Shown here piece by piece: positions 1 through 64,000 of a stretch of 64,000 nucleotides of DNA; within the stretch, counting starts at the first letter, position 1, and the number at the start of each line of letters is the position of its first letter. The notes under the pieces were generated by a model. It saw only the letters and a program-made list of their open reading frames with translations. It did not search any database and was not told the origin of the DNA. This DNA comes from a candidate division FCPU426 bacterium (lineage in GTDB: Bacteria > Oederibacteriota > JAAXVQ01 > JAUVAV01): positions 704,001-768,000 of the forward strand of contig JBFLYH010000001.1 of assembly GCA_040756875.1 (NCBI GenBank), written 5' to 3'. The position numbers and the translations under genes are program-made.

Positions 1-552
1 GCGCTGATTTCCGCCAGGGAAAACGGATCCGAAGAGAATCAGTGTTTTTGGATAGGGGCTTCATCGCTCGTACCCGGTGTGGGCCAAATGATCAATCATG
101 ACTATCTGCAGGGAGGATTGCTGCTTTTCGCTTCCTCTTTGTCATGGAGCACCGTTCATCAGCTGGAGTTCACACGTAAAAGGCAGAGTGGGACGGAAGC
201 TTTCCAACCTTTTTATATTGCCTCACTGTTCCTGAGGGATGGAATCATGACGTACGCTATGCTTCATGCCACCAACAGGCACTATCGTGAGTATCATGAC
301 CGGACGGCGGCGATGTGGACTGGTACAGCATCGCTTTTGCCCGGTCTCGGGCAGGCGATAAACGGGGATTGGTGGGAAGCCGGTGGATTGTTTGCGGGTT
401 GGGCTCTATCGACCGCCGTGGTTTCATACTTTGAGTCGATGATTTTTCAAAGTGGCAATGACAGTTTATTGGTAGAGGAAACAGAACATCCTCGTTTTAA
501 CATTTGCTGGGTTCCGGGCGGCGCGACACTGGGCGTGACCATAGGATGGTGA
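1..552 (+). CDS. Hypothetical membrane/envelope protein, 5'-truncated by the window edge
   Basis: Frame 1 is open from base 1 to TGA 550-552. It has two copies of an SL(V/L)PGxGQxIN motif, each followed by a hydrophobic segment. Confidence 0.65.
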   Translation, partial: ALISARENGSEENQCFWIGASSLVPGVGQMINHDYLQGGLLLFASSLSWSTVHQLEFTRKRQSGTEAFQPFYIASLFLRDGIMTYAMLHATNRHYREYHDRTAAMWTGTASLLPGLGQAINGDWWEAGGLFAGWALSTAVVSYFESMIFQSGNDSLLVEETEHPRFNICWVPGGATLGVTIGW

Positions 553-2618: not shown

Positions 2619-2639
2619 AAAGCTTAAGGAATCTCAACT

Positions 2640-4400
2640 ATGAGGAAGCCCTCCCAGACGCAGGGAATACGGCTACTTTCACCGGATGTGGCAAACTTGA
2701 TCGCAGCCGGGGAGGTTGTCGAACGGCCGGCGGCCGTTGTAAAAGAGCTAATAGAAAACGCGTTGGATGCCGGCGCGTTGAATATTGAAGTGACGTCCCA
2801 CCAGGCGGGTTTTGGTGAATTGAAAGTAGTGGACGATGGAAAGGGAATCCCTTCCCACGAGGCCGAGCTCGCGTTACAACGGCATGCGACGAGTAAAATA
2901 TACCAGGCTGAGGACCTACAGCAGATCGAAACTTACGGATTTCGCGGAGAAGCATTGGCTGCGATTTCCTCGGTTAGCAAAATCGAAATGCTCACCCGCT
3001 TGAAGTCCCATAGTGATGGCTTTCTTGTCCAGGCGGAAGGAGGCAGAATACTTCAAACCCGGCAGGCGGGTTGCGCGCCCGGCACATCAGTGGCAGTCAG
3101 GGAGTTGTTCTACAACACGCCGGCGCGGCGCCGTTTTATGAAGAGCGATAGCACTGAAGAGTCACACATTGTCACGGCGGTTGAGTTAGCAGCGCTTGCC
3201 AATCTGGACGTTTCTTTTAAACTGACCTGCAATAATCGGGAGATCTTGTTCTGCCCGCCGAGCCAAACGCTGGAAACGCGTTTGCGTGATTTGTACCAAA
3301 AATCCACTCCGAAACGACTGTTGGAGGTGTATTTAGAAGCCGGTGGAGTGGAGATTAAAGGCGTGCTAGGGTCGGTTGCCGAGCACCAGGGCACCAGGAA
3401 CTATATGCGATGGTTTGTGAATCAAAGACCAGTGGAACACCGAGGTATCTCCCATGCTGTCCTGCAGGTTTATCAGCCATTATTGCCCAAAGGAAAGTTT
3501 CCTTTTGCTTTCATATTTGTTGAACTGCCGCCCCAGTTGGTGGATGTAAATGTACACCCGACCAAGCGCGAAGTTAAGTTTAGGGATGAATCTGCCATTC
3601 ATAAAATTATACTCAACGCGGTAAAAACGGCTCTGGAACCTTCAAATCCTGCTTCGTGGATTCCGCCGACTATTAAAGACCTGCCCACAGAATCACCGGC
3701 ACCTAAAACGAACCAAAGCCTGCCGTTTGATGTCAACGCCTGGAACCCTAGCCAAGTGCGGGAATCCATTGCGACTTACTTTAACTCAAGTTTAGATGAA
3801 AATTCGTCACTTGAACAGAATACCAGTGTACCTGGGCATTTCCTTAACATTTTAGGTTTAGTTGGAAAAAAATATTTTGCCGGATATGATGAGGAAGGCT
3901 TTTTCATAATAGATCAACATGCTGCTCATGAGAGATTGATCTATGAAGAATTATTGAATAATAGTGGAGATATTAAAAAGCAATTATTGCTGGTTCCAAT
4001 ACAGGTTGAATTAAATGCCGGCGAATTCAATTTATTAATGGGGATAAAAGAAATACTGGATAAATCAGGGATTGATTTCACAGTTGCCGGTAAAAATGTA
4101 ATCATGATAAATTCTCAACCGCATTTTTTCAATGGCGATATTTATTTGGTAATAAAAGAAATATTAGAAACAGGCCATGAAAATGATAAAATAGATCATA
4201 AAATCCAGGAAAAAATATTTAAAGCTATTGCTTGTAAATCTGCCGTTAAAGCAGGAGAAAGACTGCATGAAGTTCAAATACAAACGCTTATTCAAAGATT
4301 GAAACAGCATAATATCATACAGACGTGTCCTCATGGGCGACCATATATTTTCAGGATATCTTGGTCAGAATTGGATAAAATATTTAAAAGGAACTATTAA
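2640..4400 (+). CDS. mutL: DNA mismatch repair protein MutL
   Basis: IAAGEVVERPAAVVKELIENALDAGA, GFRGEALAAI, VDVNVHPTKREV, endonuclease motifs DQHAAHER, ACK and CPHGRP. Confidence 0.98.
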   Translation: MRKPSQTQGIRLLSPDVANLIAAGEVVERPAAVVKELIENALDAGALNIEVTSHQAGFGELKVVDDGKGIPSHEAELALQRHATSKIYQAEDLQQIETYGFRGEALAAISSVSKIEMLTRLKSHSDGFLVQAEGGRILQTRQAGCAPGTSVAVRELFYNTPARRRFMKSDSTEESHIVTAVELAALANLDVSFKLTCNNREILFCPPSQTLETRLRDLYQKSTPKRLLEVYLEAGGVEIKGVLGSVAEHQGTRNYMRWFVNQRPVEHRGISHAVLQVYQPLLPKGKFPFAFIFVELPPQLVDVNVHPTKREVKFRDESAIHKIILNAVKTALEPSNPASWIPPTIKDLPTESPAPKTNQSLPFDVNAWNPSQVRESIATYFNSSLDENSSLEQNTSVPGHFLNILGLVGKKYFAGYDEEGFFIIDQHAAHERLIYEELLNNSGDIKKQLLLVPIQVELNAGEFNLLMGIKEILDKSGIDFTVAGKNVIMINSQPHFFNGDIYLVIKEILETGHENDKIDHKIQEKIFKAIACKSAVKAGERLHEVQIQTLIQRLKQHNIIQTCPHGRPYIFRISWSELDKIFKRNY

Positions 4401-4457
4401 TTAAAATATCCACTATTATTACTATCATTATAACTTTAACATTCAGAATAAAAATAA

Positions 4458-5408
4458 ATGTGTTCAGAAAGAAACATTAAAATGGCCTCTCGTCAGTGGG
4501 ATATAATCGCTATTGTAGGTCCCACTTCCTCCGGTAAAACGGAATTATCCCTAGAATTAGCGGATATGCTTAATGGTGAAATCATTTCTGCGGATTCTCG
4601 CCAAATTTACATGGAAATAAGTATTGGCACAGGAAAGCCAAGTAATGACCAATTAACCAAAATTAAACATTATTTAATATCGGAAATTTCTCCGGCTATT
4701 AAAATGACTGCATATGAATTTAGTAAAATGGCCGATGATATATATAAAAAAATAATCGAGAGAAAAAAGCAATGCTTTTTAGTTGGCGGAACAGGATTGT
4801 GGATAAAGGCATTTTGCGAAGGATTGCATCCGACGCCACCTCCGGATCCTGAGTATAGGAATGTTGTATTATCTGAAATTTCTAAAAATGGTTTGAACTC
4901 AATTTACCAGGAGTTAATGTCACGCGATCCTGGCTTAATTGGGAAGATTAAACCAAATGATAAAGTGCGAATTATCAGAGCTATGGAAATCCTTTATAAT
5001 TCAGGCTCTGTTCCCTCTGAAATATACCGGAACACACTTGGAAAAAAATATAATATTCTTTGGATTGGATGCTACAAACCAAAGGAAGTGTTGTACCAAA
5101 TAGCGGAACAAAAAATAAATCTCTGGATTGCGAACGGTTGGATCGAAGAAGTCAGGGAACTATCTATAAAATATGGTCCTGATTTGCCGGCCATGCAAAC
5201 CCTGGGTTATTTTCATATATTACGTTATATTGCCGGCTCAATTACAAAAGAAAATATGATAATGAATATTAAGCTGGATACCCGGCATTATATTAAACGA
5301 CAGTTTACGTGGTTTAGATCCAACAAGCAAATTCACTGGGTAGATACCCGGAAAACGATAGCTGAACAAGTCAATGAAGTATTGGGAGCCGTTTCAAGGA
5401 TTTGCTAA
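4458..5408 (+). CDS. miaA: tRNA dimethylallyltransferase
   Basis: GPTSSGKT, ISADSRQIY, VGGTGLW, TRHYIKRQFTWF; classic mutL-miaA synteny. Confidence 0.97.
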   Translation: MCSERNIKMASRQWDIIAIVGPTSSGKTELSLELADMLNGEIISADSRQIYMEISIGTGKPSNDQLTKIKHYLISEISPAIKMTAYEFSKMADDIYKKIIERKKQCFLVGGTGLWIKAFCEGLHPTPPPDPEYRNVVLSEISKNGLNSIYQELMSRDPGLIGKIKPNDKVRIIRAMEILYNSGSVPSEIYRNTLGKKYNILWIGCYKPKEVLYQIAEQKINLWIANGWIEEVRELSIKYGPDLPAMQTLGYFHILRYIAGSITKENMIMNIKLDTRHYIKRQFTWFRSNKQIHWVDTRKTIAEQVNEVLGAVSRIC

Positions 5409-6433
5409 CACTGAAAAGTATAATACCGGAGGTGATGGACTTGGCGTCAGATCTTTGGGTGGCATTGCAGACCTGCAATCCTGTGCCTGGCCGAACGCCC
5501 GCAGGACTGACACGATGGGCGATTATTTTACGCGCATGCGTTTTTTCGATGACCGTAACTTCCGGGCTGATCGGAGTCATGCTGGCATGGCGCAGCGGTT
5601 TTTTTTCATGGCCTTTGTCTATTTTGGTCGTTTTGGGCCTGTTGCTTGCCCACGCCGCCAACAATGTTTTAAACGATCTGATGGATTTTCGAAGCGGCGT
5701 GGATACTGCAGACTATCACCGAGTCAAGTATGCTCCACATCCCATCCATGCCGGCTGGCTCACTGCCCGCGCCATGTTTTTGGTTTTTATTGCACTGTCT
5801 TTCGCGGATTTGGTCATTCTGGTCATATTAACGGGGGCAAGGGGACTTCCGGTCGCTGGTTTTGCGTTAGCTGGTTTTTTAATCAGCGTGGCTTATGTGG
5901 GCGGTAAGTTTTCGCTTAAATTTCTCGGATTGGGTGAGGCCGCAGTATTTGTGGTTTGGGGGCCGTTGATGATCGGAGGGACCTATTGGGTAATGGCGGG
6001 TTCGATCCCTTCACGGATTTTATGGGCTTCCATTCCGTATGCCCTTTTAGTGACTACAGTCATTCTAGGCAAGCACATTGACAAATTGGAAGCTGATAAA
6101 TCCAAGGGAATTAAAACACTCCCGGTTCTGCTCGGGGCCAAAAACGCGCTTGCCCTGATTTACAGTCTGATGGGACTTTTCTACCTGATCCTGTTATGCG
6201 AAAGCGTCCTGAACATCCTTCCGGCCGCTTCGTTACTGGCATTATTTTCGCTTCCGCGCGCGTTCTTGGTTTGGAAAACGCTCCGCCAACCGAAACCGGC
6301 CGAAGCGCCGAAGGATTGGCCGATCTGGCCGCTGTGGTATGTCGGTTGGTGCTTTCATCTGGTCCGCTTGGCCGGAGGCTTGATGTTGATGGGATTCTTC
6401 GGACAGGTTATTCTGGAACGGTTTTTCCGTTGA
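5402..6433 (+). CDS. menA: UbiA-family prenyltransferase (MenA-like)
   Basis: HAANNVLNDLMDF..GVD and KHIDKLEAD..GIKTL motifs, GLGE, multiple TM helices. The start may be ATG 5435. Confidence 0.75.
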   Translation: MLTLKSIIPEVMDLASDLWVALQTCNPVPGRTPAGLTRWAIILRACVFSMTVTSGLIGVMLAWRSGFFSWPLSILVVLGLLLAHAANNVLNDLMDFRSGVDTADYHRVKYAPHPIHAGWLTARAMFLVFIALSFADLVILVILTGARGLPVAGFALAGFLISVAYVGGKFSLKFLGLGEAAVFVVWGPLMIGGTYWVMAGSIPSRILWASIPYALLVTTVILGKHIDKLEADKSKGIKTLPVLLGAKNALALIYSLMGLFYLILLCESVLNILPAASLLALFSLPRAFLVWKTLRQPKPAEAPKDWPIWPLWYVGWCFHLVRLAGGLMLMGFFGQVILERFFR

Positions 6434-7130: not shown

Positions 7131-9551
7131 TTAGCGCTGCGACGCGCCGAAGCGTTCTTGCAACCGTTGAAGGATGCGCGCCTGAAGCGAATTGACTTCC
7201 TCGTCCTGTAAAGTCCGGTCAAACGCCTGGAACGTCAGCGAAAAGGCCAAGCTCTTGTTGCCGGTTTTCAGGCCTTCGCCTTGATAGAGGTCGAAGGGAA
7301 GGACGCGTTGCACCAACCCTTGGCCCAACTCCTCGATGCTGCGTCGGACGTCTCCGGCCAGAGTGTCGGCGGGAACGGAGAGGGCGATGTCGCGGACAAC
7401 AGAAGGGTAGCGGGAAAAAGGGCTCATGCTTGGTACCCGGATCCAGCGGTCGGATAGCGCTTCCAAGTCCAGTTCGGCGATCAAGAGGGGATGCTTGGAC
7501 TTGAAATGTTCCTGACATTCCGGATGCAGGGTGCCGGCCCAGCCGATTTCCTTTTCGGAAATTTGAAGGTGGAAACTGGCATTGGGATGAAGAAAGGGCA
7601 GCGGGTCGGGAATGAATTCCAGCGGCAGGGCGATCGGCAAGTGTTCCCAGAGCCCTTCCAGCACTCCTTTTAGATCGTAAAATCCCGTCTCGGGGGGAGT
7701 GGGGCCGTCCTGCCAATGCCTGGGATGCTTCGCGCCGGCCAGGGCGATCCCCACATGAACGGGTTCGAACGGCAGCGTTTGCCCGGGCGCCGGAACAAAG
7801 ACGGCGCCGCATTCAAACAACCAAATCCGGTCCTGGCCCCGCCGTTGATTGTATATGATATTGTTAATCAATCCCGGCAATAAAGCGGGACGCAGCAGGG
7901 CGGCGTCTTCGCTCAAGGGGTTTTGCAGGGCTAGGGAAGCGCGCCAGGGATGTTCCGGCGGAAGACGCAAAGCCGACCAGCTGGCTGCGCCGCAAAAGCT
8001 GTAATTGATCACTTCAGTCAATCCCGAGCCGACCAGCAGACGTCTGCATTGCTGGCGGAACTGCCTGCGGGAGTCCTGTTCGGGCGATACCAGCGGTACC
8101 CGAGGCTGGCGGATGGGAATTTGGTCATATCCCATGACTTCGGCCAAATCCTCGATCATATCCTCTTCGAATGATATGTCGGAGCGGAAACTGGGAACAT
8201 GAACCCGATAGGTGTGAGCTTGGGGCGTGGATTCCGTCAGGAAACCAAGACGAGAAAGCGCCTTGAGCGAGGGCGAAGCGGGCAGGGAGGCGCCCAGGAC
8301 TTTTTCCGCACGGTCCAAGCGGAGGGTGACCATGCGCGGCGTGTATTTTTCCGGATAAAGCTCGGCAACGCCCTTGAGTATCTCGCCTCCGGCCAATTCT
8401 GCTATCAACTGGGCGGCGCGGTCCAGCGCCAGCAACAGCCCCAGCTCGGGATCGGTGCCGCGTTCGAAACGGTAGGAAGATTCGGATTTGCAATTGGTCA
8501 GGCGGCTCATCCGACGGACGACCTTTGGATCGAACCATGCGGCTTCGAGCAGGATATTTTTAGTGTGTTCCTGCACTTCGGTGTCTTTGCCGCCCATGAC
8601 ACCCGCCAAGGCCACAGCCTGCTTGGCGTCGGCAATGACCAATTCCGCGCCGGTCAGCGTCCTCGCTTGGCCGTCAAGCGTGGTGATTTTTTCACCCGCA
8701 GCTGCCTTGCGGGCCCGGATTACGCCGCCGGAGAGACGATCGTAATCAAAGGCATGGAGGGGATGGCCGATTTCCATCAACAGGTAATTGGTGATATCGA
8801 CGATGTTGTTGATGGGGCGGACCCCGACGGCTTCCAGGCGCTGCTGCATCCAGCGCGGGGAAGGCGAAACGGTAACATTGGTGATCATGCGGGCGCAATA
8901 GCGGCGGCAGCCCGATTGGGGTTCCACTTCGACCTTGATGCGGGAGACGGTAGGAACGGCGCTTTCGGCCAAGGAGACCGATGGCAGCGTCAGGGGCCGG
9001 TCCAGCACTGCGGACAAATGGCGGGCGATGCCAAGATGGGAAAGACAATCGGGGCGGTTGGGCGTTACGTCCACTTCCAACAGCGTATCATTGAGCCCTA
9101 AGAGCTGGGAAACCGGGCTTCCGAGCTGGCTGTCGGCCGGAAGGTGCATGATGCCTTCGCTTGAGGGGGCTATTCCCAGCTCGGATTCCGAACAAATCAT
9201 GCCATTGGATTCAACCCCGCGAATCTTGGCCCGGTTGATTTGCAGACCGCCGGGCAGAGTGGTCCCGGGCAAAGCCACAGGGACGATGTCTCCGGGAGCG
9301 ATGTTTTTAGCGCCGCAGACGATTTGCAGGGTTTCGCCGGGGATTTCGACCTGGGTGAGGCTCAATTTATCCGCGTTGGGATGGCGGGCGACATTCTGAA
9401 TGCGGCCGACAACGATTTTTTCCATGCCCTGACCGCGGGATTCGACCGCAGACACTTCCAACCCGCTCAAGGTCAAGCGTTCAGCCAAAATACGGGGTTC
9501 AATATCCCGCATATCGACAAATTCAGATAACCACGCAATCGAAACGCGCAA
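7131..9551 (-). CDS. pheT: Phenylalanine-tRNA ligase beta subunit
   Basis: HPNADKL, IVCGAKN, RGVESNGMICS, TPNRPDCLS, NNIVDITNY, RFERG, FDX-ACB tail; TTG start with GGAGG upstream. Confidence 0.98.
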   Translation of the reverse strand: MRVSIAWLSEFVDMRDIEPRILAERLTLSGLEVSAVESRGQGMEKIVVGRIQNVARHPNADKLSLTQVEIPGETLQIVCGAKNIAPGDIVPVALPGTTLPGGLQINRAKIRGVESNGMICSESELGIAPSSEGIMHLPADSQLGSPVSQLLGLNDTLLEVDVTPNRPDCLSHLGIARHLSAVLDRPLTLPSVSLAESAVPTVSRIKVEVEPQSGCRRYCARMITNVTVSPSPRWMQQRLEAVGVRPINNIVDITNYLLMEIGHPLHAFDYDRLSGGVIRARKAAAGEKITTLDGQARTLTGAELVIADAKQAVALAGVMGGKDTEVQEHTKNILLEAAWFDPKVVRRMSRLTNCKSESSYRFERGTDPELGLLLALDRAAQLIAELAGGEILKGVAELYPEKYTPRMVTLRLDRAEKVLGASLPASPSLKALSRLGFLTESTPQAHTYRVHVPSFRSDISFEEDMIEDLAEVMGYDQIPIRQPRVPLVSPEQDSRRQFRQQCRRLLVGSGLTEVINYSFCGAASWSALRLPPEHPWRASLALQNPLSEDAALLRPALLPGLINNIIYNQRRGQDRIWLFECGAVFVPAPGQTLPFEPVHVGIALAGAKHPRHWQDGPTPPETGFYDLKGVLEGLWEHLPIALPLEFIPDPLPFLHPNASFHLQISEKEIGWAGTLHPECQEHFKSKHPLLIAELDLEALSDRWIRVPSMSPFSRYPSVVRDIALSVPADTLAGDVRRSIEELGQGLVQRVLPFDLYQGEGLKTGNKSLAFSLTFQAFDRTLQDEEVNSLQARILQRLQERFGASQR

Positions 9552-54183: not shown

Positions 54184-54200
54184 AATGTCGTTTGGTGATT

Positions 54201-55046
54201 ATGATGAATAATTTCAATATTATCAATAAAAACCAACTATCGCCTGATGTATGGCGTTACACCCTGTCCGCTCCGGACATTGCCCGCAAACGCCGCGCCG
54301 GCCATTTCATCATTCTCAGGCCCCTGGCTGACAGCGAACGCATCCCATTGACCATTGTGTCCTCTGACCAAGACCAGGGGACCATCGACATTATTTTTCA
54401 AGTCGTGGGCGCCACAACGAGGGATTTGGCCGGTCTGCGGGCAGGCGAGCCGGTCAAAGACTTGATCGGCCCTCTCGGTCATCCCACGGAGATCGCCAAA
54501 CACGGCACCGTGGCCATGGTGGGAGGCGGGGTGGGCATTGCACCGCTGCTGCCCATTGCCCAGGCTTTCCGCGCGGCCGGCAACCGCTTGGTCACCATCC
54601 TCGGCGCACGCGCCCGCAGCCTGCTGATCCTCGAGCAGGAGCTCGCCTCCATCAGCGACAAAGTGCTCCTGACCACGGACGACGGTTCTGCCGGGCAAAA
54701 AGGCCTGGTGACCGCCGCCTTGGAGCCTTTGCTCGTTGCCCGCGAAATCGATTTCGTCATGGCCGTAGGCCCCGTGCCCATGATGAAAGCCGTGGCCGAT
54801 CTGACCCGGGGCTTCGGCGTCAAGACCATGGTCAGCCTCAACCCGCTGATGCTGGACGGCACGGGCATGTGCGGGGTATGCCGGTGCCAGGTGGCGGGGA
54901 AAACCCGTTTCGCCTGCGTGGAAGGCCCTGAGTTTGACGCCCACCAAGTGGATTTCGACAGCCTGCGGCGCCGCCTGACCATGTTCAGGGAAGAAGAGAA
55001 GGCGCGCCGCGAAGCCAAACCCAGCGGAGGGTCCCATGCCGCTTGA
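54201..55046 (+). CDS. nfnA: NfnA/SudB-type FAD/NAD-binding [2Fe-2S] subunit
   Basis: ERIPLTI, GPLG, GGGVG.AP, GPVPMMK, SLNP.M.DGTGMCG.CR...FACVEGPEFD. Confidence 0.9.
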   Translation: MMNNFNIINKNQLSPDVWRYTLSAPDIARKRRAGHFIILRPLADSERIPLTIVSSDQDQGTIDIIFQVVGATTRDLAGLRAGEPVKDLIGPLGHPTEIAKHGTVAMVGGGVGIAPLLPIAQAFRAAGNRLVTILGARARSLLILEQELASISDKVLLTTDDGSAGQKGLVTAALEPLLVAREIDFVMAVGPVPMMKAVADLTRGFGVKTMVSLNPLMLDGTGMCGVCRCQVAGKTRFACVEGPEFDAHQVDFDSLRRRLTMFREEEKARREAKPSGGSHAA

Positions 55047-56436
55047 CCTCAACCGCGTCCATATGCCCGAGCAGGACCCCGCGCAGCGCCGCCGCAATTT
55101 CTCGGAAGTCAATTTGGGGCTCGACGCCGAAGCCGCCCGGCGCGAGGCAGCGCGCTGCCTGTATTGCAAGCGCCCCACCTGCGTGGACGGCTGCCCGGTG
55201 CACATCAATATCCCGCATTTCCTTGCGGCCTTGCGCGACGGTGATCCGGATGCTTCGGCCCGCCGCATCCGCCAGGACAACAGCCTGCCGGCGATTTGCG
55301 GCCGCGTCTGCCCGCAGGAAACCCAGTGCGAACTGGCCTGCGTGCTGAACAAGAAAGGCGCGCCCATCGCCATCGGGGCCCTGGAGCGCTTTGTCGGCGA
55401 CCATGCCCTGCGGCAAAACCTCGCCGCGGAACGCCCGGCCGCCGAACGGACGGAGAAAATCGCCATCGTGGGCAGCGGCCCCTCGGGCCTGACCTGCGCC
55501 GGCGAACTCCGCAAACTCGGCTATCAGGTCACGGTTTTCGAGGCGTTGCACGCGCTCGGCGGGGTGCTGACCTACGGCATCCCCGAGTTCCGCCTCTCGA
55601 AAGCGAAAGTCGTACAGCCGGAGATCGAAACCCTTCGCGACCTGGGCGTAGTCTTTGCGACCAATGCCGTGGTTGGCCGTCTGGCCACCATCGAGGAACT
55701 GCTGAACGCCCAGGGATTTGCAGCCGTCTATATCGCCACGGGCGCCGGCTATCCGCAATTCATGGGCGTCCCGGGCGAGGATCTCAACTACGTCTACTCG
55801 GCCAACGAATTCCTGACCCGCATCAACCTGATGGAAGCCTACCGATGGAACGCAGCAGCCACGCCGGTGCGGGTGGGCCGCCGGGTAGGCGTGGTCGGCG
55901 GCGGCAACACCGCCTTGGATGCCGCGCGCTCGGCTCTGCGTTTGCCGGGCGTGGAGGAAGTGCATTTGATCTATCGGCGTTCCGAACAGGAAATGCCCGC
56001 CCGGACCGAGGAAGTGAAGCACGCCCGCGAAGAGGGGATCATCTTCCGGCTGCTCACGGCACCCGTGGCTTTTACAGGCAATGAGCGGGGCGACCTGGCT
56101 GCCGCACGCTGCGTGGAGATGGCGCTCGCTGAACCGGACGCGTCCGGCCGCAGGCGGCCGGTCCCCAAACCCGGCAGTGAGTACCTTCTGGAACTGGATT
56201 CGGCCGTGATCGCCATCGGCACCCAGGCCAATCCCATCATCGCCCAAACCACACCCGGTTTGGCGTTGACTTCCAAAGGCTATTTGCAGGTGGATGAGCA
56301 GGGCCGGACCGCCATGCCGCGGGTTTATGCTGGCGGCGACATTGTCAGCGGTTCTGCCACGGTTATTCTGGCCATGGGTGCCGGCCGGACCGCGGCTCAT
56401 GCCATGCATTTCGATCTCACCGGTCAAAAACTTTAA
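55036..56436 (+). CDS. nfnB: NfnB/SudA-type (GltD-like) flavo-iron-sulfur subunit
   Basis: EAARCLYCK.P.CVDGCPV, CGRVCPQE.QCE, GSGPSGL, YGIPEFRL, GGGNTA.D.AR, YRRS..EMPAR, AGGDIV.G.ATVILAMG; follows nfnA. Confidence 0.9.
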   Translation: MPLDLNRVHMPEQDPAQRRRNFSEVNLGLDAEAARREAARCLYCKRPTCVDGCPVHINIPHFLAALRDGDPDASARRIRQDNSLPAICGRVCPQETQCELACVLNKKGAPIAIGALERFVGDHALRQNLAAERPAAERTEKIAIVGSGPSGLTCAGELRKLGYQVTVFEALHALGGVLTYGIPEFRLSKAKVVQPEIETLRDLGVVFATNAVVGRLATIEELLNAQGFAAVYIATGAGYPQFMGVPGEDLNYVYSANEFLTRINLMEAYRWNAAATPVRVGRRVGVVGGGNTALDAARSALRLPGVEEVHLIYRRSEQEMPARTEEVKHAREEGIIFRLLTAPVAFTGNERGDLAAARCVEMALAEPDASGRRRPVPKPGSEYLLELDSAVIAIGTQANPIIAQTTPGLALTSKGYLQVDEQGRTAMPRVYAGGDIVSGSATVILAMGAGRTAAHAMHFDLTGQKL

Positions 56437-56732: not shown

Positions 56733-59700
56733 ATGGCGAGCATCCCTGGCTTGTTTTCCATTTGGAGAAAACATCACCTCGTTTTTAGTCAGCGTATCCT
56801 CGCCTTGCTGGTCTCAATAACTTTCATCCTTCCGCATGTCACCTGGGCTTTCGAGTCCAATACCTTCGCCACTCCCGGGCAATTCCGCTTCCAAAACCAG
56901 CTGCTGGAAATCCCCAAACAACTGGCTTCGATCTCAGATTCATTCCAGGGACAGGGAGACCGTCTGGTCATCCACATCCAGGACTTGCACTGCAATTACG
57001 AGGTGCAAAACCACATTGCCGGGCTTCTGGAAAGCCTGCAGAGCCAGGTGCCCCTGCGGCTGATCGGAATCGAAGGCGCCAGTCTGCCGGTCAACGTGAC
57101 CAAGCTGTCCACTTTTCCCAGGCAAAAAATCAAGGAACAGGTGGGGGATTATTTCCTCCACCAGGGACAGATGTCGGGCGCCGAATACTACGCCGCCGTC
57201 AAAGGCCGCGAAAGCAAATTGCTGGGAATGGAAAACGCCGACCGCTACGCCAGCAGCAGGGAATGCGTCTCGCGTTTCCTGTCCGACGAGACCGGCGGGT
57301 ATCTCATGGATTTGCACGAGGCGCTGGAGGAGACCAAGCCCCGCGTGTATTCGCCCCGCCTCCTCAAGTTTGACGCGGAAAGCTCCGCTTACCGCCAAGG
57401 CCGCCTCCCGCTCCAATCCTACGCCGTGCACCTGGCCGAACAGGCCCGCCAGCAAACGCTCCCCCTCGACGCCTATCCGCAGCTGCAACGCTATGTGGCC
57501 CTGCGGCAGAACATTTTCCCCGAAGACGTGGATCCTGACCAGTTGTTCACGGACATCGAGCGCCTGGAAGCCGTCCTGCGCGCGCCGCTGGTTACGACCG
57601 CCGGGGAAAAAGAGCTGCTAGAGCTGTTGCGCCGCCAGGAGTTGCTGGAGAAACTGCTCAACGTTTCCGCCTCGCCCGCCGAGCTGGCCGAGTTCCGCGC
57701 CCATCCCGAAAAACTGCGGATCGCGAACTTCACGGCGTTTCTCGGCCGTTATCCGGTCGGCGAGGACCTGGATCCCGATTTGTCCCTGCTCGACCGGCAA
57801 TTGCGCGAAGTCGAGCAGTTCTACCGTTCGGCGGATTTGCGCAGCGGTGATTTCGTGGCCAACCTGCTCCGGCAAATGGAACGCCAGAATGTCCGGACCG
57901 CCGTGCTGGCCACCGGTGGATATCACACTCCGGAGATCCTGGCCGGCCTGCGCCAGGCCGGCGTCAGTTACGTGTCGGTAAAACCCAGGCTGCTGCATCC
58001 TGACCGCGTCAATCCGTATTTCTCCCTGCTGCGCAACCATGCCACGCCCCTGGAAAAACTACTGGCCCAGAATCAGGAAAAAATCGCCCTGGCCCCGCTG
58101 CTGGCCCAGTGGCAGGACGCAGACCAGATCGTATCCGAAAACCAGTTGCCGAGGGAAACGCGCATCACGTATCAAATTGTCGATATGATGTTGAAGCTGG
58201 CCTTGCTGTCCGACCTGGCGCAATCCGGAATCCGCGAACCCGCGGAACTCTCGCGGGCCTTTGACGCCGAGGTGGGGAAGTATCCCGCCAATAATCCGGG
58301 CATCCGGCCGGATTTTGCCACCCTGCAGTTCCACGGTGACGCCCTGCTGGTGGGATTGGCCGGCCAGCCTTTCCTGGCCGCGCTCTATCCCAGGTCGGCG
58401 GCCGGACGTATGCCGGGCAAAGCCGTCTACGCCACCACTTTGAACGGCCGCGGCTTGGGCTTTTACAGCGCCGGAGACGCGGCGGTCGTGGCCAAGGCAT
58501 TGCAGCGCGTCGGCCAGCCCCGTTGGCGCCGCTGGTCATCGTTCCTGGCGGACCTGGGCGGCCGGAGCCTCCGTTTGGCCCGCACTGCGCTGCGGCAGGC
58601 GCCGCTCTGGGTTCGCAGCCGTTTGACCGCCGAACAAATTCAATCGACGCTGTCCAGCCCGGTGGTCTGGGCGGCGGTCGCCGTTCTGGCGGGCCTGCAC
58701 CAGGTTTGGACCGGAGCCATGGATTTTACCACGGCCCTGGGAATCGGCATGATCAGCGGAACGTACGGCCCCAGGGCTCCCAATGTCCTCTTTTTCGAAA
58801 AAGGCATGGCCGCCGCGCCTGAATATCTGGAGTCCCGCCTGGGCGGGAAAGGCCGTGGGCTCTACCTCATGGCGCGCCTGGGTCTGCCCGTGCCGCCTGG
58901 GTTCATCATCCAGTCCGAGGTGTCCAAACAGGTCAATCATCTCGGACGGATCCCCCGCAGCCTGATGAAGGAAATCAACGATAACCTCGAACACCTTGAA
59001 ATTGCGAGCCACCGCGAATTTGGGAACCCCAAGGCCCCGCTGCTCCTGTCCGTGCGTTCGGGCGCCGAGCAATCCATGCCCGGCATGATGATCACCCTGA
59101 CCAACGTGGGCTTGAACGACCAGACGGTCGAGGGCCTGGCCGCCATGAGGAACGATGAACTGTTCGCCTGGGAATTGTACGCGGCGTTCATCGAAAATTA
59201 TGCTTTCCACGTGCATCGCGTGCCCCGCGACATTTTCCAGGCCCTGCGGGTCCAGGCTATGGTCCAGGCGAACAAACCCTCCCTTTCACCCGAACAGCTG
59301 CGCTCGTTGGTGGGGGAATTCAAGGCGGCCTTCCATAAACAAACAGGGTTCGCGTTCCCGCAGAACGTCCGCGAACAACTGCGGAACGCCACCCGCGCGG
59401 TCATGGCCTCCTGGGACGCGCCGGAGGTGCTGGCTTTCCGCCAGCGCAACCAGATCCCGAACACCGGCACGGGCGTGACCATTCAGCAGATGGTGTTCGG
59501 CAATCTCCGGGAAAATTCCGGGGCGGGTGTAGCGTACTCCCGCAACCCCTACAACGGCGAACCCGGGGTGTTCGGAGAATTCAGCTGGGCCGAACCCGGC
59601 GAGGCCATTGTGTCAGGCCGCATCACGGCCGGCAGCCTGGAAGACCTGGCCGCGCGCCTGCCGCAAGCGCACGGACTGATGCAGCGCTACGCCGAGGCGC

Positions 59701-62700
59701 TGGAAAAATATTTCGGCGAAATCCAGGACATCGAGTTCGTGGTTGAAAACGGCGAGCTCTACCTGCTGCAGACCCGGAGCGCCCGCAATTTCGTCTATCC
59801 CACGGCCCGCATCCGCAGCCTGGTGGACATGATCCGAGAAGGGCTCAAGGACGAGGAAACGGTCGTCCACCAGATCAGCCTGAAAGAACTGCACTGGCTC
59901 GAGGACTTTTTAAAAGCGCCGCGCATCAAACCCGGCGCCAAAGGCCTGGTGACCATCGGCAAGCCGGCCGCGCCGGGCATTGCCACGGGGCACATCGCCT
60001 TCTCCCATGCCAAAGCCCGGGAACTGATGGCCGAGGGCAAACCCGTCATCCTGGTCCTGGACCATTCGGACAAGGAAGACGAAAAGTTGCTGATGGAAAA
60101 GAACGTTGTCGGTGTCGTGGAACGGGTGGGCAGCATCCTGTCCCACGCGTCGGCCCTGCTGCGGCAGGAGCGGAGCATGAAACCCTGCGTGGTCGGGCTT
60201 CAGAACCTGCAGCTGAACACCCGCGACGCCCAGCCTCATATACTTATCGGCAGGGAACGGCAGTGGGTCGGCGAAGGCATGATGATAACCGTGGACGGCA
60301 ACACCGGCCAGATTTACCTCGGCAATGATATTGCCCTGGAGGACTCCGAAGTCGCCCAGGTTCTCAATGGCAACGACCGGTTGCGTAGTTCGGCCGGGTG
60401 GAAATTGTACGAGCAGATCCAAACCTGGCTCGACCGGCACGCGAAACTCGTGCACGAGGAAGAGGAATCACTAAGCCCCCTGATCGACAAATGGCTGAAA
60501 GACCCCCAAGGCACCCTGATCACGCCGGAAGTCTCGGCCCTGCTGGAAACGATCCGCGATTCCCATCCCAACCTGGTGCGGGCGAAGAAACACGGCATCC
60601 TGGTGGCGACCATCCGCTGCCTGCTGGCCAAGGACACCTTGCCCTCCGAGAAATTCGACAGCGAAGTCGACCTGTTCCAATTCATCGGCTTCTACGCCGA
60701 TGTTCTGGGATCCCTGCCGACCGCCGAGGGCGGCGAAGTGTTCATGCTGCTGAACGAGATCGATCCGGAGACCGCGCGACGCGTGCTCTACAACGCCTTT
60801 GGCATGCATCCCTACTTCATTGAAGCTTTTCAGGCCTTGAGTGCGAACCGGCCCGAAGCATTCATCCAATTGCTGGACAACTTGGTGATCCCGGTCGGGG
60901 AACTCTCCCCCGAGGAATTGACCGTTTTTCAGCGGAAGCTCGTGTATCTGTTCACCCGTTTTTTGGACCAGATGCCCGAAGAACAGTTGCAGCCGTTTTT
61001 ACCCAGGCTGCGCGGGGAAACCCTGGCCCACCTGGCCGCAGAATGGCTGGTGCGCGGTCCGGAGAAGCTCAAAGACAAGACCCGCCTCTTCAGGCAAACC
61101 CTGGCCGCCGTGGCCGCTGACCATCCCGAACGCATCCGGGATTTTTGGGCGCAGGTACGCCGGACCGATTCGCTGCGCAAAACCGACTGGTTCATGGGCA
61201 ATTTGGGCCGCATCGGCATCGTCCCCGAAGCGCCGCAGCCCGAAGGGGAAGGGCTGATCAGTTTCTCCCTGACCAGATTCGTAGCCGGTCTGGCGGGCAT
61301 GTTGATCGTGACCGCGCTCCTCGGCTTCGCGGCGCCTGACAACGCTCTGGCGTGGGTATTGCCGTTGCTTTTCGGGTCAGGCGGCCTTGCGGTATGGTTT
61401 GGTCCGCGCTTGTATTATTTGGCGAGACTGGCCGCGCCCCTGGCCGGACGTCCGCAGCTGTCGGACGGCAACATCAACCAGCAGCTGCAAGCCCTGTTGG
61501 CGGACATCGAGCGCCGCGGTGGCTTGCCCGCAGGCTACCGCAGGCCCATGCTGGCGCCCTTGCCCGCGCAGCCGTGGTGGCGCAGCCTCTGGTCCGGTTT
61601 CCGCATCGCTTCCGGCGCCGATGGCACGGTCCGCCTGCACCCCAGGTTTTTAAACCTGTCCCCGGCCGCTCAGCGCGCGATGTTGACGCATGAAATATAT
61701 GAAGCGCACGGATCAAAACACTGGCGCGCCACCTGGGCGGAATATGTTTCGGTCTTACGCGCGGCCCCCCGCAACAACCCCGGCCATAATCCCGTCAACA
61801 ATCCCGGAACGCCCCGCGCCAGCCTGCTGCAGTCCATGCGCGGGCACTTGGAGACCGTTTATCTGGATCCGTTCCTCGCCATCGGCCATCTGGGCGATGA
61901 CGTGATCGAACTGAAAAACCTCCAACACCCGGATCAATCGTTCTGGCTGAAATTGCGGGACGACACCAACATCAGCGAAGGACTGTTGCATTACAGCATC
62001 TATGCCCAGCATCCCTCTTTCTTCGGGCAGCCGGTGGTCCTGGGCTTCGGGATGTCCGTGGCCCAGGACAATGAAATCAATCTGCTGACTTTCAACACCG
62101 AGCAGCCGGAGGGCGTGCTAGCGGCCGGCAGCGGGGCCACGATCATGAATTTCCTGCGGCAGGAAGCCCTGCGCCTGAACCGGCACTTCCTTTTCAGCGA
62201 CATGGGCAATGCCCGGGTCAGGACCCTGGTCCGCCGTTTTACCCGCAATGTCAGCATTCCCGGCTGGTCCGTAGAAGGGCAGGACCCGCAGGCCCGGCTG
62301 CCCTGGTCGTGGGACGACTGGCGAGGGCGTTTCCTGTACGCGGATCCCCAAACCACCGGAGAGGTCATAGCCGGACAGCTTGCGGATTGGGATCTGCTTG
62401 CCGACCGTGCGGAACAATTGCTCAACCGCCTGATCCCCGATCAACGCCGTTCCGAAATTCGCGCCGCCATGTGGCAGCAGGCTGCGGCGGAATGGAGCAG
62501 GACGCAGCAGCCGCGCCAGGCGGGTTTGGCGGCCTTGCGGGCCGTATTGGACGCCGGACTGCCCCTGGCTGACCGCGCGCCGGCCGCGCTCAATGTATGG
62601 TTGGAACGGGAATTGCGCGATCTCAGGGAGGTCGTATTCCCTGCGGATCTCGACCGCCTGACAACCGCTCTGGCCCTTCCTGGTGCTTCCCCCGCAATTG

Positions 62701-64000
62701 CGCTTTCGCCCCGGGAGAAACTTTTCGCCAACTTATCTGCAACGCTCAATCCCGGTCAGGATCCGGCGCGCGATCGCATCCTGCGCGAAATGTACGGTGA
62801 TCTGCTGGCGGCCCGGCCCACTTGGCTGCAGCCGTCCAATCAGCCCATGCTGCAAGCCGCCCTGGAATTGCTGCTGGTTGCCGATCCCGCCCTTGCTGAA
62901 GCTCCTGCCCAGGGAAAGGACGAAGCTTTCGTCCAGGCCTTGGGCAAGGTCTTGGAAGCCCTCGCACCGGCCCAAGCTGGACAGGTTTTGCAGTTACTGC
63001 TGGAGGAATACCGCGCGGCATGGAATCAGATTATGTCTTATCCCTTGGGGAATCACAAAGCCTTCATCCGCGTTTTAACCCAGCTTGGATTCCGCAATCC
63101 TTCGGCATTGTCCCATATGCTCGACAGCCTGCCGTTTGATTTTTCCAAAGCCTCGGCTGCGGAACTTCGCCGGAATTTCGAAGCCACCAACTTCGCTTTC
63201 GCCCGGGCCGTAACCTATTTGCCGGCGGAACAACAGCATTCCATCCTGACATCGCTTCAAGGCCGGGCGCTATACACCTTGTACGCACAATGGCTGGTTG
63301 CCTTGTCCAATCAGGGAATTTACGACCGCATTTTCGGCGGCGTGGCCGAACCCGGGCTCTTACGCGGCATGCTGCAGGAAACTTTACGCAGCCACCCAGA
63401 TCAGGCCCAATTCTGGAAAAGGGTGGATGAAGCCGGCAGCCTTGACCAGTCCGGATTCTATCAAACCGTAGCCGGCGTGAAGAGTTTTAGCGAATTATTG
63501 CGGAAGCAAGGGTTCCACCTGCCCCGGGACCTGCTGCCGGCCGAAGAACTCGCCCGTTACGCCCGCCTGGTGCGCGAGGAATTCAAACGTTCGCCCGAAC
63601 CCACTGCCCTCTGTTTCACGCACGCCGCCCGCCTGGTCGCTTACTTCAAGGCCCAGGGCCGGAATGCCTACGTCTTCAAAAAACAGTTCCCAGGAGTGGA
63701 GGACGAGCATTACTACGTTTACGTGGAAGGTTATCTGGTGGACGTCTTTCCGGACGATCTCATCTCCAAATTCAACACCCCTGAGGTCAACCAAATTCGC
63801 AGTTTGATCCGGGACGACGTGATCGTCGTGCGTGCCCTTTCACCCGAGGTACGCCCTTATACCGGAACGCCGTTCCCCGAGCAACTGAACGACGAAGCAA
63901 TCGCGCGCTCCAACCTGTTCATTGCTTTGGAATTCGAGTTGCCGACCGTGGCCTCGGCCGAGGATGTCGAGTGGGAGCGTTCGGACCGTCAAGCCATCCA
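56733..64000 (+). CDS. Giant multidomain protein (>2,420 aa, 3'-truncated) containing a PPDK-like module; absent from the ORF track
   Basis: Manual translation from ATG 56733 found no stop up to 64000. None of the listed + strand ORFs in this span use this frame. In-frame motifs include LGGKG, SVRSGA..SMPGMM and DIEF...LYLLQTR. Confidence 0.92.
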   Translation, partial: MASIPGLFSIWRKHHLVFSQRILALLVSITFILPHVTWAFESNTFATPGQFRFQNQLLEIPKQLASISDSFQGQGDRLVIHIQDLHCNYEVQNHIAGLLESLQSQVPLRLIGIEGASLPVNVTKLSTFPRQKIKEQVGDYFLHQGQMSGAEYYAAVKGRESKLLGMENADRYASSRECVSRFLSDETGGYLMDLHEALEETKPRVYSPRLLKFDAESSAYRQGRLPLQSYAVHLAEQARQQTLPLDAYPQLQRYVALRQNIFPEDVDPDQLFTDIERLEAVLRAPLVTTAGEKELLELLRRQELLEKLLNVSASPAELAEFRAHPEKLRIANFTAFLGRYPVGEDLDPDLSLLDRQLREVEQFYRSADLRSGDFVANLLRQMERQNVRTAVLATGGYHTPEILAGLRQAGVSYVSVKPRLLHPDRVNPYFSLLRNHATPLEKLLAQNQEKIALAPLLAQWQDADQIVSENQLPRETRITYQIVDMMLKLALLSDLAQSGIREPAELSRAFDAEVGKYPANNPGIRPDFATLQFHGDALLVGLAGQPFLAALYPRSAAGRMPGKAVYATTLNGRGLGFYSAGDAAVVAKALQRVGQPRWRRWSSFLADLGGRSLRLARTALRQAPLWVRSRLTAEQIQSTLSSPVVWAAVAVLAGLHQVWTGAMDFTTALGIGMISGTYGPRAPNVLFFEKGMAAAPEYLESRLGGKGRGLYLMARLGLPVPPGFIIQSEVSKQVNHLGRIPRSLMKEINDNLEHLEIASHREFGNPKAPLLLSVRSGAEQSMPGMMITLTNVGLNDQTVEGLAAMRNDELFAWELYAAFIENYAFHVHRVPRDIFQALRVQAMVQANKPSLSPEQLRSLVGEFKAAFHKQTGFAFPQNVREQLRNATRAVMASWDAPEVLAFRQRNQIPNTGTGVTIQQMVFGNLRENSGAGVAYSRNPYNGEPGVFGEFSWAEPGEAIVSGRITAGSLEDLAARLPQAHGLMQRYAEALEKYFGEIQDIEFVVENGELYLLQTRSARNFVYPTARIRSLVDMIREGLKDEETVVHQISLKELHWLEDFLKAPRIKPGAKGLVTIGKPAAPGIATGHIAFSHAKARELMAEGKPVILVLDHSDKEDEKLLMEKNVVGVVERVGSILSHASALLRQERSMKPCVVGLQNLQLNTRDAQPHILIGRERQWVGEGMMITVDGNTGQIYLGNDIALEDSEVAQVLNGNDRLRSSAGWKLYEQIQTWLDRHAKLVHEEEESLSPLIDKWLKDPQGTLITPEVSALLETIRDSHPNLVRAKKHGILVATIRCLLAKDTLPSEKFDSEVDLFQFIGFYADVLGSLPTAEGGEVFMLLNEIDPETARRVLYNAFGMHPYFIEAFQALSANRPEAFIQLLDNLVIPVGELSPEELTVFQRKLVYLFTRFLDQMPEEQLQPFLPRLRGETLAHLAAEWLVRGPEKLKDKTRLFRQTLAAVAADHPERIRDFWAQVRRTDSLRKTDWFMGNLGRIGIVPEAPQPEGEGLISFSLTRFVAGLAGMLIVTALLGFAAPDNALAWVLPLLFGSGGLAVWFGPRLYYLARLAAPLAGRPQLSDGNINQQLQALLADIERRGGLPAGYRRPMLAPLPAQPWWRSLWSGFRIASGADGTVRLHPRFLNLSPAAQRAMLTHEIYEAHGSKHWRATWAEYVSVLRAAPRNNPGHNPVNNPGTPRASLLQSMRGHLETVYLDPFLAIGHLGDDVIELKNLQHPDQSFWLKLRDDTNISEGLLHYSIYAQHPSFFGQPVVLGFGMSVAQDNEINLLTFNTEQPEGVLAAGSGATIMNFLRQEALRLNRHFLFSDMGNARVRTLVRRFTRNVSIPGWSVEGQDPQARLPWSWDDWRGRFLYADPQTTGEVIAGQLADWDLLADRAEQLLNRLIPDQRRSEIRAAMWQQAAAEWSRTQQPRQAGLAALRAVLDAGLPLADRAPAALNVWLERELRDLREVVFPADLDRLTTALALPGASPAIALSPREKLFANLSATLNPGQDPARDRILREMYGDLLAARPTWLQPSNQPMLQAALELLLVADPALAEAPAQGKDEAFVQALGKVLEALAPAQAGQVLQLLLEEYRAAWNQIMSYPLGNHKAFIRVLTQLGFRNPSALSHMLDSLPFDFSKASAAELRRNFEATNFAFARAVTYLPAEQQHSILTSLQGRALYTLYAQWLVALSNQGIYDRIFGGVAEPGLLRGMLQETLRSHPDQAQFWKRVDEAGSLDQSGFYQTVAGVKSFSELLRKQGFHLPRDLLPAEELARYARLVREEFKRSPEPTALCFTHAARLVAYFKAQGRNAYVFKKQFPGVEDEHYYVYVEGYLVDVFPDDLISKFNTPEVNQIRSLIRDDVIVVRALSPEVRPYTGTPFPEQLNDEAIARSNLFIALEFELPTVASAEDVEWERSDRQAI

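Follow-up and report, generated by a model that had tools for sequence, protein, structure and literature searches.

A PPDK-type dikinase cassette with a conserved helical solenoid in place of the pyruvate/PEP barrel in a giant multi-enzyme protein of a candidate division FCPU426 bacterium

Results

The dikinase module lies within a giant open reading frame

We analysed a stretch of 64,000 nucleotides (nt) of DNA (the window) from a candidate division FCPU426 bacterium (GenBank assembly GCA_040756875.1, contig JBFLYH010000001.1, positions 704,001 to 768,000 of the forward strand). A first reading of its sequence (the original prediction) had pointed to a dikinase or effector, derived from pyruvate phosphate dikinase (PPDK) but missing the barrel that handles pyruvate and phosphoenolpyruvate (PEP). 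The predicted segment corresponds to residues ~690-1215 of a single open reading frame (ORF) of 8,793 amino acids (aa), so that the module is not self-contained but part of a membrane-anchored multi-enzyme protein (Table 1). Hereafter, G000 is the genome holding the window, other G-numbers are related genomes and P-numbers are individual proteins.

The giant protein begins with a hydrophobic segment, signal-peptide-like or an anchor, which terminates in a conserved ..TWA|FE sequence (..WAFE is kept in P0002 and in the G032 and G027 proteins). A 'front domain' follows and then a second segment, less hydrophobic, that is a probable transmembrane (TM) helix; TM-like segments occupy the equivalent position in P0002, P0003, P0007 and P0009. 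Behind it lie the PPDK-type nucleotide-binding (ATP-grasp) domain, the phospho-histidine swivel domain and a helical solenoid, together referred to as the cassette, and then a TM hairpin.

Table 1. Features of the giant ORF, with nucleotide positions in the window and residue numbers of the giant protein
Feature	Residues (aa)	Window position (nt)	Strand or frame	Remarks
Giant ORF, first 2,422 codons		56733..64000	+	G000:C1:760733-787114; ends 23 kb past window end
N-terminal hydrophobic segment	22-40	56796..56852	+	Kyte-Doolittle (KD) 2.02; three Lys/Arg precede
Front domain	41-610 (570 aa)	56853..58562	+	without Pfam family
Moderately hydrophobic segment	640-658	58650..58706	+	KD 1.49; between front domain and dikinase
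PPDK-type nucleotide-binding (ATP-grasp) domain	~690-1040	58800..59852	+	
LGGKG	703	58839	frame +1	
GLPVPPGF		58881	frame +1	
LLSVRSGAEQSMPGMM		59043	frame +1	
QQMVFGN		59484	frame +1	
SRNP		59538	frame +1	
GEAIV		59598	frame +1	
QDIEFVVENGELYLLQTR		59724	frame +1	
Phospho-histidine swivel domain	~1062-1201	59916..60335	+	His1138 codon at 60144-60146
GSILSHAS		60129	frame +1	His codon 60144-60146 (His1138)
ITVDGNTGQIY		60285	frame +1	
Helical solenoid, copy 1	1225-1505	60405..61247	+	occupies the place of the PEP/pyruvate barrel
WLDRHAKL		60426	frame +1	
TM hairpin and 'HEIYEAH' module, copy 1 of 3	1506-1680	61248..61772	+	internal repeat
Helical solenoid, copy 2	2028-2243	62814..63461	+	E 7e-12; no dikinase precedes
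Metallophos (metallophosphatase)	~2646-2756	beyond window		
Kinase-like regions (two)	3666-3817 and 7306-7470	beyond window		
TreT-like GT4	~4030-4500	beyond window		E 2.9e-48
Alpha-glucan-phosphorylase-like domain	~5010-5272	beyond window		E 1e-19; PDB 4l22, E 1e-6
HATPase_c	~5731-5835	beyond window		

The module is the front half of PPDK with its catalytic residues intact

The motifs quoted in the original prediction are real, each of them sitting in frame +1 of the one ORF, and the identification of a PPDK-derived pair of ATP-grasp and phospho-His domains was borne out by profile and structure comparisons. The PPDK model TIGR01828 matched residues 699-1211 with its positions 14-516 out of 865 (E 3e-116; 389.4 bits, under the curated cut-off of 843.45), and solved PPDKs in the PDB matched the module at E 2e-85. 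Pfam returned PPDK_N (E 1.4e-32) and the PEP-utilisers mobile domain PF00391 (E 1.1e-6). The module was also matched by NF004531 (E 9.5e-96; 321.5 bits, under the curated cut-off of 456) and by PHROG 18609 ('kinase', 685 positions; E 1.6e-85).

The module is collinear with Clostridium symbiosum PPDK (EC 2.7.9.1; structures 1kbl and 1dik) over PPDK residues 8-517. With residues numbered on the 874-residue chain of that enzyme, K22, R92, D321, E323, Q335, R337 and H455 are all present (K706=K22, R775=R92, G784=G101, D999=D321, E1001=E323, Q1013=Q335 and R1015=R337). The regulatory Thr453 is replaced by Leu (Leu1136) and the Asp of GEDVV by Ala (GEAIV), both as originally noted, while Glu1130 replaces the Thr or Ser at position -8 from the catalytic His. 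An AlphaFold2 (AF2) model of the cassette (predicted local distance difference test, pLDDT, 88.3; predicted template modelling score, pTM, 0.74) contains a complete PPDK front half. Its best Foldseek matches were PPDK structures (E 3e-41 to 1e-31), with further matches to rifampin phosphotransferase (RPH; E 1e-9) and HpeI (E 1.4e-5).

The barrel is absent from the giant protein

The pyruvate/PEP barrel is missing, as the original prediction had it: the barrel family PF02896 had no match in three pieces spanning all 8,793 residues, and the finding named there as refuting it, a barrel in this region or later in the protein, did not turn up. A six-frame PF02896 search (E<=1) of the whole 3.22-Mb, 100%-complete genome returned three places, none of them in the giant ORF. 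The corresponding open frames (PEP-utilisers_C; 923, 729 and 586 aa) do not lie near the giant gene. The 923-aa frame also holds PPDK_N, and one of the three places is the canonical PPDK of the genome, 884 aa long and 36% identical to the module. Because the cassette lacks the barrel, interconversion of pyruvate and PEP is impossible for the protein studied here.

A conserved helical solenoid takes the place of the barrel

The region behind the swivel domain is, again in agreement with the original prediction, helical and unrelated to the barrel, and forms a conserved solenoid of ~280 aa. Its AF2 model is all-helical, with 17 helices (pLDDT 88.9, pTM 0.83). On this model the solenoid is ARM/HEAT-like, has no known specific relative and shows no enzyme-like fold. 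Foldseek found no match at E<=1e-3 in PDB or BFVD. The highest Z in a VIA-align comparison with 48,161 chains was 7.5, no better than noise for helical repeats, the top matches being the generic ARM/HEAT structures of the MgtE N-domain, TOG, importins and formins. In the ESM Atlas the best score was 0.83, with recognition below threshold. Among the matches listed by Foldseek and VIA-align there was no ligand-binding fold; nor did the fold matches listed include HPr, the helical subdomain of Enzyme I, the rifampin-binding domain of RPH or HpeH, a distant kinship with the last two being possible.

Despite this lack of fold relatives, individual residues of the solenoid are invariant or nearly so. 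His1359 (nt 60807-60809) is invariant in 19/19 solenoid copies, which represent 17 distinct sequences; it lies in a P-x-G-x-H turn and is the first residue of helix 135-148 of the model. Arg1409 (nt 60957-60959) is near-invariant (17/19 copies), and Trp1472 (nt 61146-61148) is invariant in the 16 copies that have this part. The second solenoid copy of the giant protein keeps the same His, Arg and Trp, its His being His2108.

A solenoid profile (A1) was built from 11 copies. Among the 150 best representatives of the module, it located the solenoid immediately behind the swivel domain in eight, which are exactly the closest non-canonical ones (P0002, P0003, P0005, P0006, P0007, P0008, P0009 and P0011). 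The solenoid thus also occurs in stand-alone proteins, P0005 and P0011, of 835 and 964 aa. Among the 99 species genomes of the phylum of the window's genome it was present in seven, all from its own family (six of the ten others). A word-indexed search for the solenoid among proteins of 1,332-4,239 aa found none, and an A1 profile search of longer proteins found only P0003; given the word filter, both are weak evidence. The profile had no match (E<=1e-5) in 301 sampled genomes from the phylum of an Omnitrophota-labelled metagenome-assembled genome, a set that held no positive control. Viral contigs scanned with the stand-alone cassette protein P0005 gave no match.

The solenoid-bearing modules form a clade of their own

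A deep HMMER search with the module returned 10,910 matches at E<=1e-3. The closest was P0002 (5,061 aa; 48% identity), which carries the module at the same offset, followed by the long proteins P0003, P0006, P0007, P0008 and P0009 and the short P0004 and P0005. No barrel was found in any of the ten best relatives scanned with Pfam, and the ~280 residues behind the swivel domain are homologous among the best relatives. Of the 150 best representatives, 67 have a barrel and 83 lack it, as judged by phmmer with the C-terminus of the genome's own PPDK; many of the latter are forms of ~500-600 aa or fragments.

The cassette is kept among related genomes. Two further giants carry the module, in G032 (8,820-aa open frame; 49% identity) and in G027 (8,763 aa; G027:C1 ~55.5-81.8 kb; 46%). 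G023 and G024 encode it in shorter proteins, and G031 on a contig fragment; all five genomes have, in addition, at least one match of the canonical PPDK type. A further copy of module and solenoid (G023:C3:93073-95518) has three in-frame stops (two TGA and one TAA) and is probably a pseudogene. A broader locus search with the module profile, in a collection that leaves out the window's own lineage, returned 80 loci from many phyla that matched only the PPDK part (query residues to ~570). These are most likely canonical PPDKs and uninformative for the solenoid.

Phylogenetic analyses separated the solenoid-bearing modules from canonical enzymes. In an IQ-TREE analysis of 37 modules, the ten solenoid-bearing ones lay on one side of a branch with support 100/99. 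A second small group (P0008, P0021, P0005 and P0004) lay behind another 100/99 branch, and all 17 sampled barrel-bearing PPDKs lay beyond a third. FastTree with 148 rows (137 of the 150 representatives plus 11 modules from genomes, after 13 with fewer than 440 matched residues had been dropped) separated the 11 clade modules from 69 barrel-bearing ones with support 99 and placed the short barrel-less forms elsewhere. By both trees, the solenoid cassettes form their own clade, apart from all barrel-bearing PPDKs sampled.

Catalytic residues are retained although the cassette diverges. Across 21 aligned modules, invariance is confined to 39 of 536 reference positions; K22, R92, E323, Q335, R337 and H455 are conserved in 21/21 and D321 in 20/21 (Glu in P0008). 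Within the clade, 67/536 positions are invariant (12.5%), and all seven catalytic residues are so in 11/11 members. The G032 giant, from a congener, is fully collinear with that of G000 (63% identity overall), and the cassette is the least conserved part between them (ATP-grasp 51%, swivel 47%, solenoid 34%). That the catalytic residues are held despite this drift argues for retained catalysis rather than decay.

The threonine position bears on another early claim, that the module is insensitive to control by Thr phosphorylation. This is true but trivial: the position two before the His is variable in the clade (L/F/T/Y/M), and the 100%-complete genome has no PDRP/DUF299 gene (PF03618), so that such control is unavailable even to its canonical PPDK. 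Position -8 is Glu or Asp in 11/11 clade members versus Thr in the seven canonical or short PPDKs aligned. A hydrophobic residue at the Thr position has been described (PMC12167813) for small-molecule dikinases outside PEP metabolism, with Met in HpeH and RPH.

The cassette follows a generic head domain and is predicted to be cytoplasmic

The front domain had 109 relatives at E<=1e-5, in proteins of 1,332-4,239 aa labelled FCPU426, Firestonebacteria, Omnitrophica, Elusimicrobia and Auribacterota. It had no Pfam match at E<=5 and no PDB sequence match, and its Atlas matches were only unnamed, mostly Omnitrophota clusters (score 0.92). It is collinear with the corresponding parts of the G032 and G027 giants and P0002. 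The cargo of the front-domain proteins is mixed (FBPase, SIS, serine acetyltransferase, enolase+TIM+PGK, PGM, hexokinase, SecA and methyltransferases). As its relatives indicate, long multi-enzyme membrane proteins form a large class in which the front domain serves as the generic head.

Since 6 of the 11 proteins checked share it, the front domain was considered as a specific partner of the dikinase and rejected: only 4 of the 109 front-domain proteins carry PF01326, and the PPDK-type module of the giant or its solenoid was found in 0/108 of the new ones. Where the cassette does occur, it is the first module after the head, in six front-domain representatives (P0002, P0003, P0006, P0007, P0009 and P0033) as well as in the G032 and G027 giants.

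Some further observations concern this class. The cargo behind the head spans stretches of glycolysis (enolase+TIM+PGK, PGM, hexokinase+PGI, PFK and FBPase). P0166 (3,029 aa) has the head and a complete PEPS-type dikinase, barrel included, where the giant has the barrel-less cassette (PF01326 687-1040, PF00391 1291-1373 and PF02896 from 1579). P0221 has a weak match to the ChaN/Tiki superfamily (PF04187) inside the head domain; for P0227 a weak PF04187 match comes from a precomputed listing. The G027 giant, from another genus of the same family, has the same modules in shuffled order, with an insert of ~500 aa between head and cassette, and the modules of giants are evidently shuffled as units.

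Only hydropathy and the positive-inside rule were used to read the topology. Between aa 41 and 1507 no segment reaches KD>=1.6, and the one at aa 640-658 is the only TM candidate. Each TM hairpin has Lys or Arg on both outer flanks and none in its three-residue turn, a pattern that puts the sequence on either side of the hairpin in the cytoplasm, and with it the solenoid and the rest of the cassette. The cassette is therefore predicted to lie on the cytoplasmic face of the membrane, as its need for ATP demands, and copy 1 of the hairpin, so read, anchors its C-terminal side there. Topology predictions are described as unreliable for giant proteins in published work on them.

Discussion

We propose that the cassette is an active cytoplasmic dikinase that autophosphorylates on His and passes the phosphate on at the solenoid, to an acceptor that is not pyruvate and may be a protein; for this chain as a whole we estimate a probability of roughly 0.55. 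Its core, an active barrel-less dikinase with an acceptor other than pyruvate, appears likely; the new acceptor of the original prediction remains a plausible candidate. A protein site at the solenoid as the recipient of the phosphate is put forward more tentatively, with the odds somewhat against it.

In the proposed mechanism, the ATP-grasp domain would load the beta-phosphate of ATP onto His1138, with release of AMP and either inorganic phosphate (Pi) or pyrophosphate (PPi). The swivelling carrier domain with its phospho-His1138 would then move to the solenoid, where a bound acceptor other than pyruvate would take over the phosphate. This acceptor would most likely be a protein site: His1359 itself, a bound partner or a neighbouring module. 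The cassette would thereby act as a regulatory, VadK-like, non-canonical histidine kinase and not as a metabolic, PEP-forming enzyme. The autophosphorylation step is suggested by homology and by the precedent of Rv1127c/VadK, a barrel-less PPDK that autophosphorylates its catalytic His with ATP and Mg2+ (H422A is dead), binds methylcitrate-cycle enzymes and acts on protein partners (PMC13400623).

The solenoid is suggested as the docking or acceptor site because it takes the place of the barrel, travels with the module even in stand-alone proteins and has an invariant His at a helix N-terminus together with a conserved Arg. The most economical reading would be a transfer at the protein level, with either His1359 or a partner bound to the solenoid as recipient. 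A sister protein, P0007 (equivalent to the 2,204-aa ORF of G023), has the cassette fused to a low-molecular-weight (LMW) phosphatase whose CX5R(S) loop is intact, which fits reversible phosphorylation. A precedent for a His-to-His step exists in Enzyme I of the PEP-dependent phosphotransferase system, whose swivel phospho-His domain hands phosphate to a His on HPr; unlike the cassette, Enzyme I is charged via its barrel from PEP and not from ATP.

A bolder version, which we regard as distinctly unlikely, would make the protein a receptor-like His phosphorelay, with an exported head, a membrane pass, a PPDK-type autokinase and His1359 (with Arg1409) as acceptor. His1359 would receive the phosphate like HPr or an HPt domain, His2108 of solenoid copy 2 would be a further station, and the phosphorylation state would switch enzyme modules along the giant. 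If true, giant multi-enzyme proteins would carry a built-in signalling device that is not a two-component system.

Several points weigh against the proposed reading. The cassette drifts fastest within the giant protein, which also fits relaxed constraint. The solenoid has, in its model, neither an enzyme-like nor a known phospho-acceptor fold, and since its best fold matches are generic ARM/HEAT repeats it could be a mere spacer or scaffold. Solenoid copy 2 lies ~800 residues downstream without a preceding dikinase, so that the domain is not strictly tied to the module and a one-to-one functional tie is weakened. The Arg-rich stretch before aa 640-658 misfits a simple out-to-in helix.

Four other explanations were weighed. 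The one we take most seriously, though we think it unlikely, is a dikinase for a small molecule or polymer, in the manner of glucan-water dikinase (GWD), RPH, HpeHI or PpsAB, in which the solenoid would be a substrate-binding domain and the substrate a carbohydrate (alpha-glucan or trehalose-type) or a membrane-bound compound made or handled by the other modules of the giant. A TreT-like GT4, an alpha-glucan-phosphorylase-like domain and a metallophosphatase are indeed present in the same protein; the first two are its best conserved parts (82-86% identity between G000 and G032), and in P0002 the cassette is likewise accompanied by the GT4. The composition of the giant resembles that of glucan phosphorylation cycles (GWD/SEX4), whose enzymes are a dikinase, a phosphatase, a synthase and a phosphorylase. 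The matches of the cassette model to RPH and HpeI point the same way, as does the loss of the Thr two before the His, a published mark of such enzymes (PMC12167813). However, the cassette also occurs without a glycosyl-transferase or phosphorylase, in P0003, P0006 and P0009 and in the stand-alone P0005 and P0011, and the shuffled order in G027 shows that cassette and GT4 are no fixed pair. Moreover, Pfam found no carbohydrate-binding module in the 8,793 residues of the giant, and neither the rifampin-binding domain nor any ligand-binding fold is among the fold matches listed for the solenoid. A relic, either in decay or retained for structure alone as a scaffold that no longer turns over ATP, would account for the low conservation between congeners (34-51% against 63% overall), for the G023 relative with three in-frame stops (contig 3) and for the likeness of the solenoid to a generic repeat scaffold. 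It is nevertheless improbable: the seven catalytic residues are invariant in 11/11 clade members in which no more than 12.5% of all positions are, the G032 and G027 giants, the G031 fragment and the shorter G023 and G024 proteins have all retained the module, and AF2 confidently folds a complete PPDK front half.

The chemistry of the first partial reaction of PPDK permits a net conversion of ATP to AMP and PPi or 2 Pi. From it follows the possibility of a device without acceptor, an ATP pyrophosphohydrolase or PPi generator in which the phospho-His is simply hydrolysed (ATP -> AMP + PPi, or 2 Pi), either feeding PPi-dependent enzymes or acting as a local sink for ATP; that no acceptor domain was identified is compatible with it. 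Such a device, which we rate as very improbable, leaves unexplained both the solenoid with its invariant His and Arg behind the module and the phosphatase fusion in P0007. An ATP-draining effector, as suggested originally, finds no support either: the predicted place of the module is the cytoplasm, its context shows no sign of a toxin or of secretion, and PADLOC had no match in the first 6,422 residues of the giant, the cassette included. The least credible alternative is a split PPDK, working in trans with a barrel on a different protein. The genome does encode three PEP-utilisers_C proteins, and in the head-domain relative P0166 the equivalent position is taken by a full PEPS-type dikinase that includes the barrel. 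Against this, all three barrels look full-length by their open frames, the longest having its own PPDK_N, and no barrel gene lies near the giant gene; the clade of the module has long been separated from barrel-bearing PPDKs, and the place of the barrel is taken by a conserved domain.

Compared with known systems, the cassette shares the ATP-grasp and swivel domains of PPDK and differs from it by the missing TIM barrel, by Thr453 -> Leu and Glu for Thr/Ser at position -8, and by its separate clade. VadK, like NF004531 and PRK05878, is likewise a PPDK front half without barrel, but it is a soluble two-domain protein of ~490 aa, whereas the cassette has a solenoid in addition and is built into a giant membrane protein. 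RPH, HpeHI, CreHI, PpsAB and glucan-water dikinase also combine an ATP-grasp domain and a swivel His with a different third domain, and a hydrophobic residue at the regulatory Thr position (Leu1136 here) is shared with the RPH type (PMC12167813). Unlike theirs, the nucleotide domain of the cassette is PPDK-type (Foldseek E 3e-41 versus 1e-9).

The protein is one of the giant multi-enzyme membrane proteins of the type reported by West-Roberts et al. 2023 (bioRxiv 10.1101/2023.11.21.568195) and in 10.64898/2026.06.07.730766. Like the giants of Omnitrophota and related candidate phyla ('Archaeovorins') portrayed there, it is thousands of residues long, crosses the membrane with many TM segments and combines a variety of metabolic enzyme domains. 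West-Roberts et al. 2023 count PPDK_N and HATPase_c among the frequent domains of giant proteins and read the PPDK domains as interconverting pyruvate and PEP, so far the reading in print; the barrel needed for this is absent here.

Barrel-less PPDKs (NF004531; VadK, 2026), swapped third domains (RPH, GWD, HpeHI and PpsAB) and PPDK_N matches in giant proteins (West-Roberts et al. 2023) are already known. In the accessible parts of the giant-protein preprints and of the dikinase literature, and in the literature listings searched, we found no description of the three-part cassette and its solenoid with invariant His and Arg, of its separate clade, of its fixed place as the first module after the head or of its fast drift with catalytic residues strictly kept. 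Very little is understood of the giant multi-enzyme membrane proteins of uncultured bacteria, and the cassette, a small (~830 aa), confidently folded piece predicted to be soluble, should offer a practical handle on their function. Together with the 2026 work on VadK, it suggests that PPDK turned histidine kinase or phosphotransferase is a recurrent invention across phyla.

Other features of the giant protein and its surroundings

The GT4 and phosphorylase-like parts (aa ~4031-5280), best conserved between G000 and G032, suggest that a carbohydrate-handling core is the most constrained function of the giant. At least 12 hydrophobic segments with KD>=1.6, judged from hydropathy only, lie along the protein. 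The TM hairpin/HEIYEAH module (~175 residues) is present in three copies (aa 1504-1680, 2419-2591 and 3475-3650; pairwise E 1e-30 to 1e-45) and is shared by P0002 and P0003. A tight TM hairpin makes up its first part, and a soluble part with a conserved 'HEIYEAH...HW' follows; the module has no Pfam (E<=5) or PDB sequence match and might be a membrane anchor or a zincin-like self-processing site. Two further uncharacterised stretches of the giant gave nothing credible in Pfam at E<=5, and a PDB sequence search with three uncharacterised stretches (the front domain and the HEIYEAH module included) found no match. No SecA-like domain was found by Pfam in pieces covering the 8,793 residues. The two protein-kinase-like copies resemble each other at E 5e-25; the second has weak Pkinase/PrkT matches and matches to PADLOC PD-T4-6 (E 9e-10). 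The C-terminus reads ...RRQLFRTSAQAA, a conserved end domain terminating in Ala-Ala; the Ala-Ala tail is also present in the G032 and G027 giants and in P0002, and 39 of the 108 new head-domain proteins end in the same way.

The genes flanking the giant are unrelated housekeeping genes. Downstream lie those for a cupredoxin-like protein, ArgJ and ThrRS. Upstream, at window positions 54192-56436 (+), is an overlapping pair for an NfnAB/SudAB-type NADPH oxidoreductase, with PyrK-like FAD/NAD/Fe-S and GltD-like subunits. Among the sequencing runs listed, one DNA run, probably from the source sample, contains the sequence, and no RNA run does. The G+C content is 0.40-0.49 over window positions 1-6000, versus ~0.60 in the remaining window.

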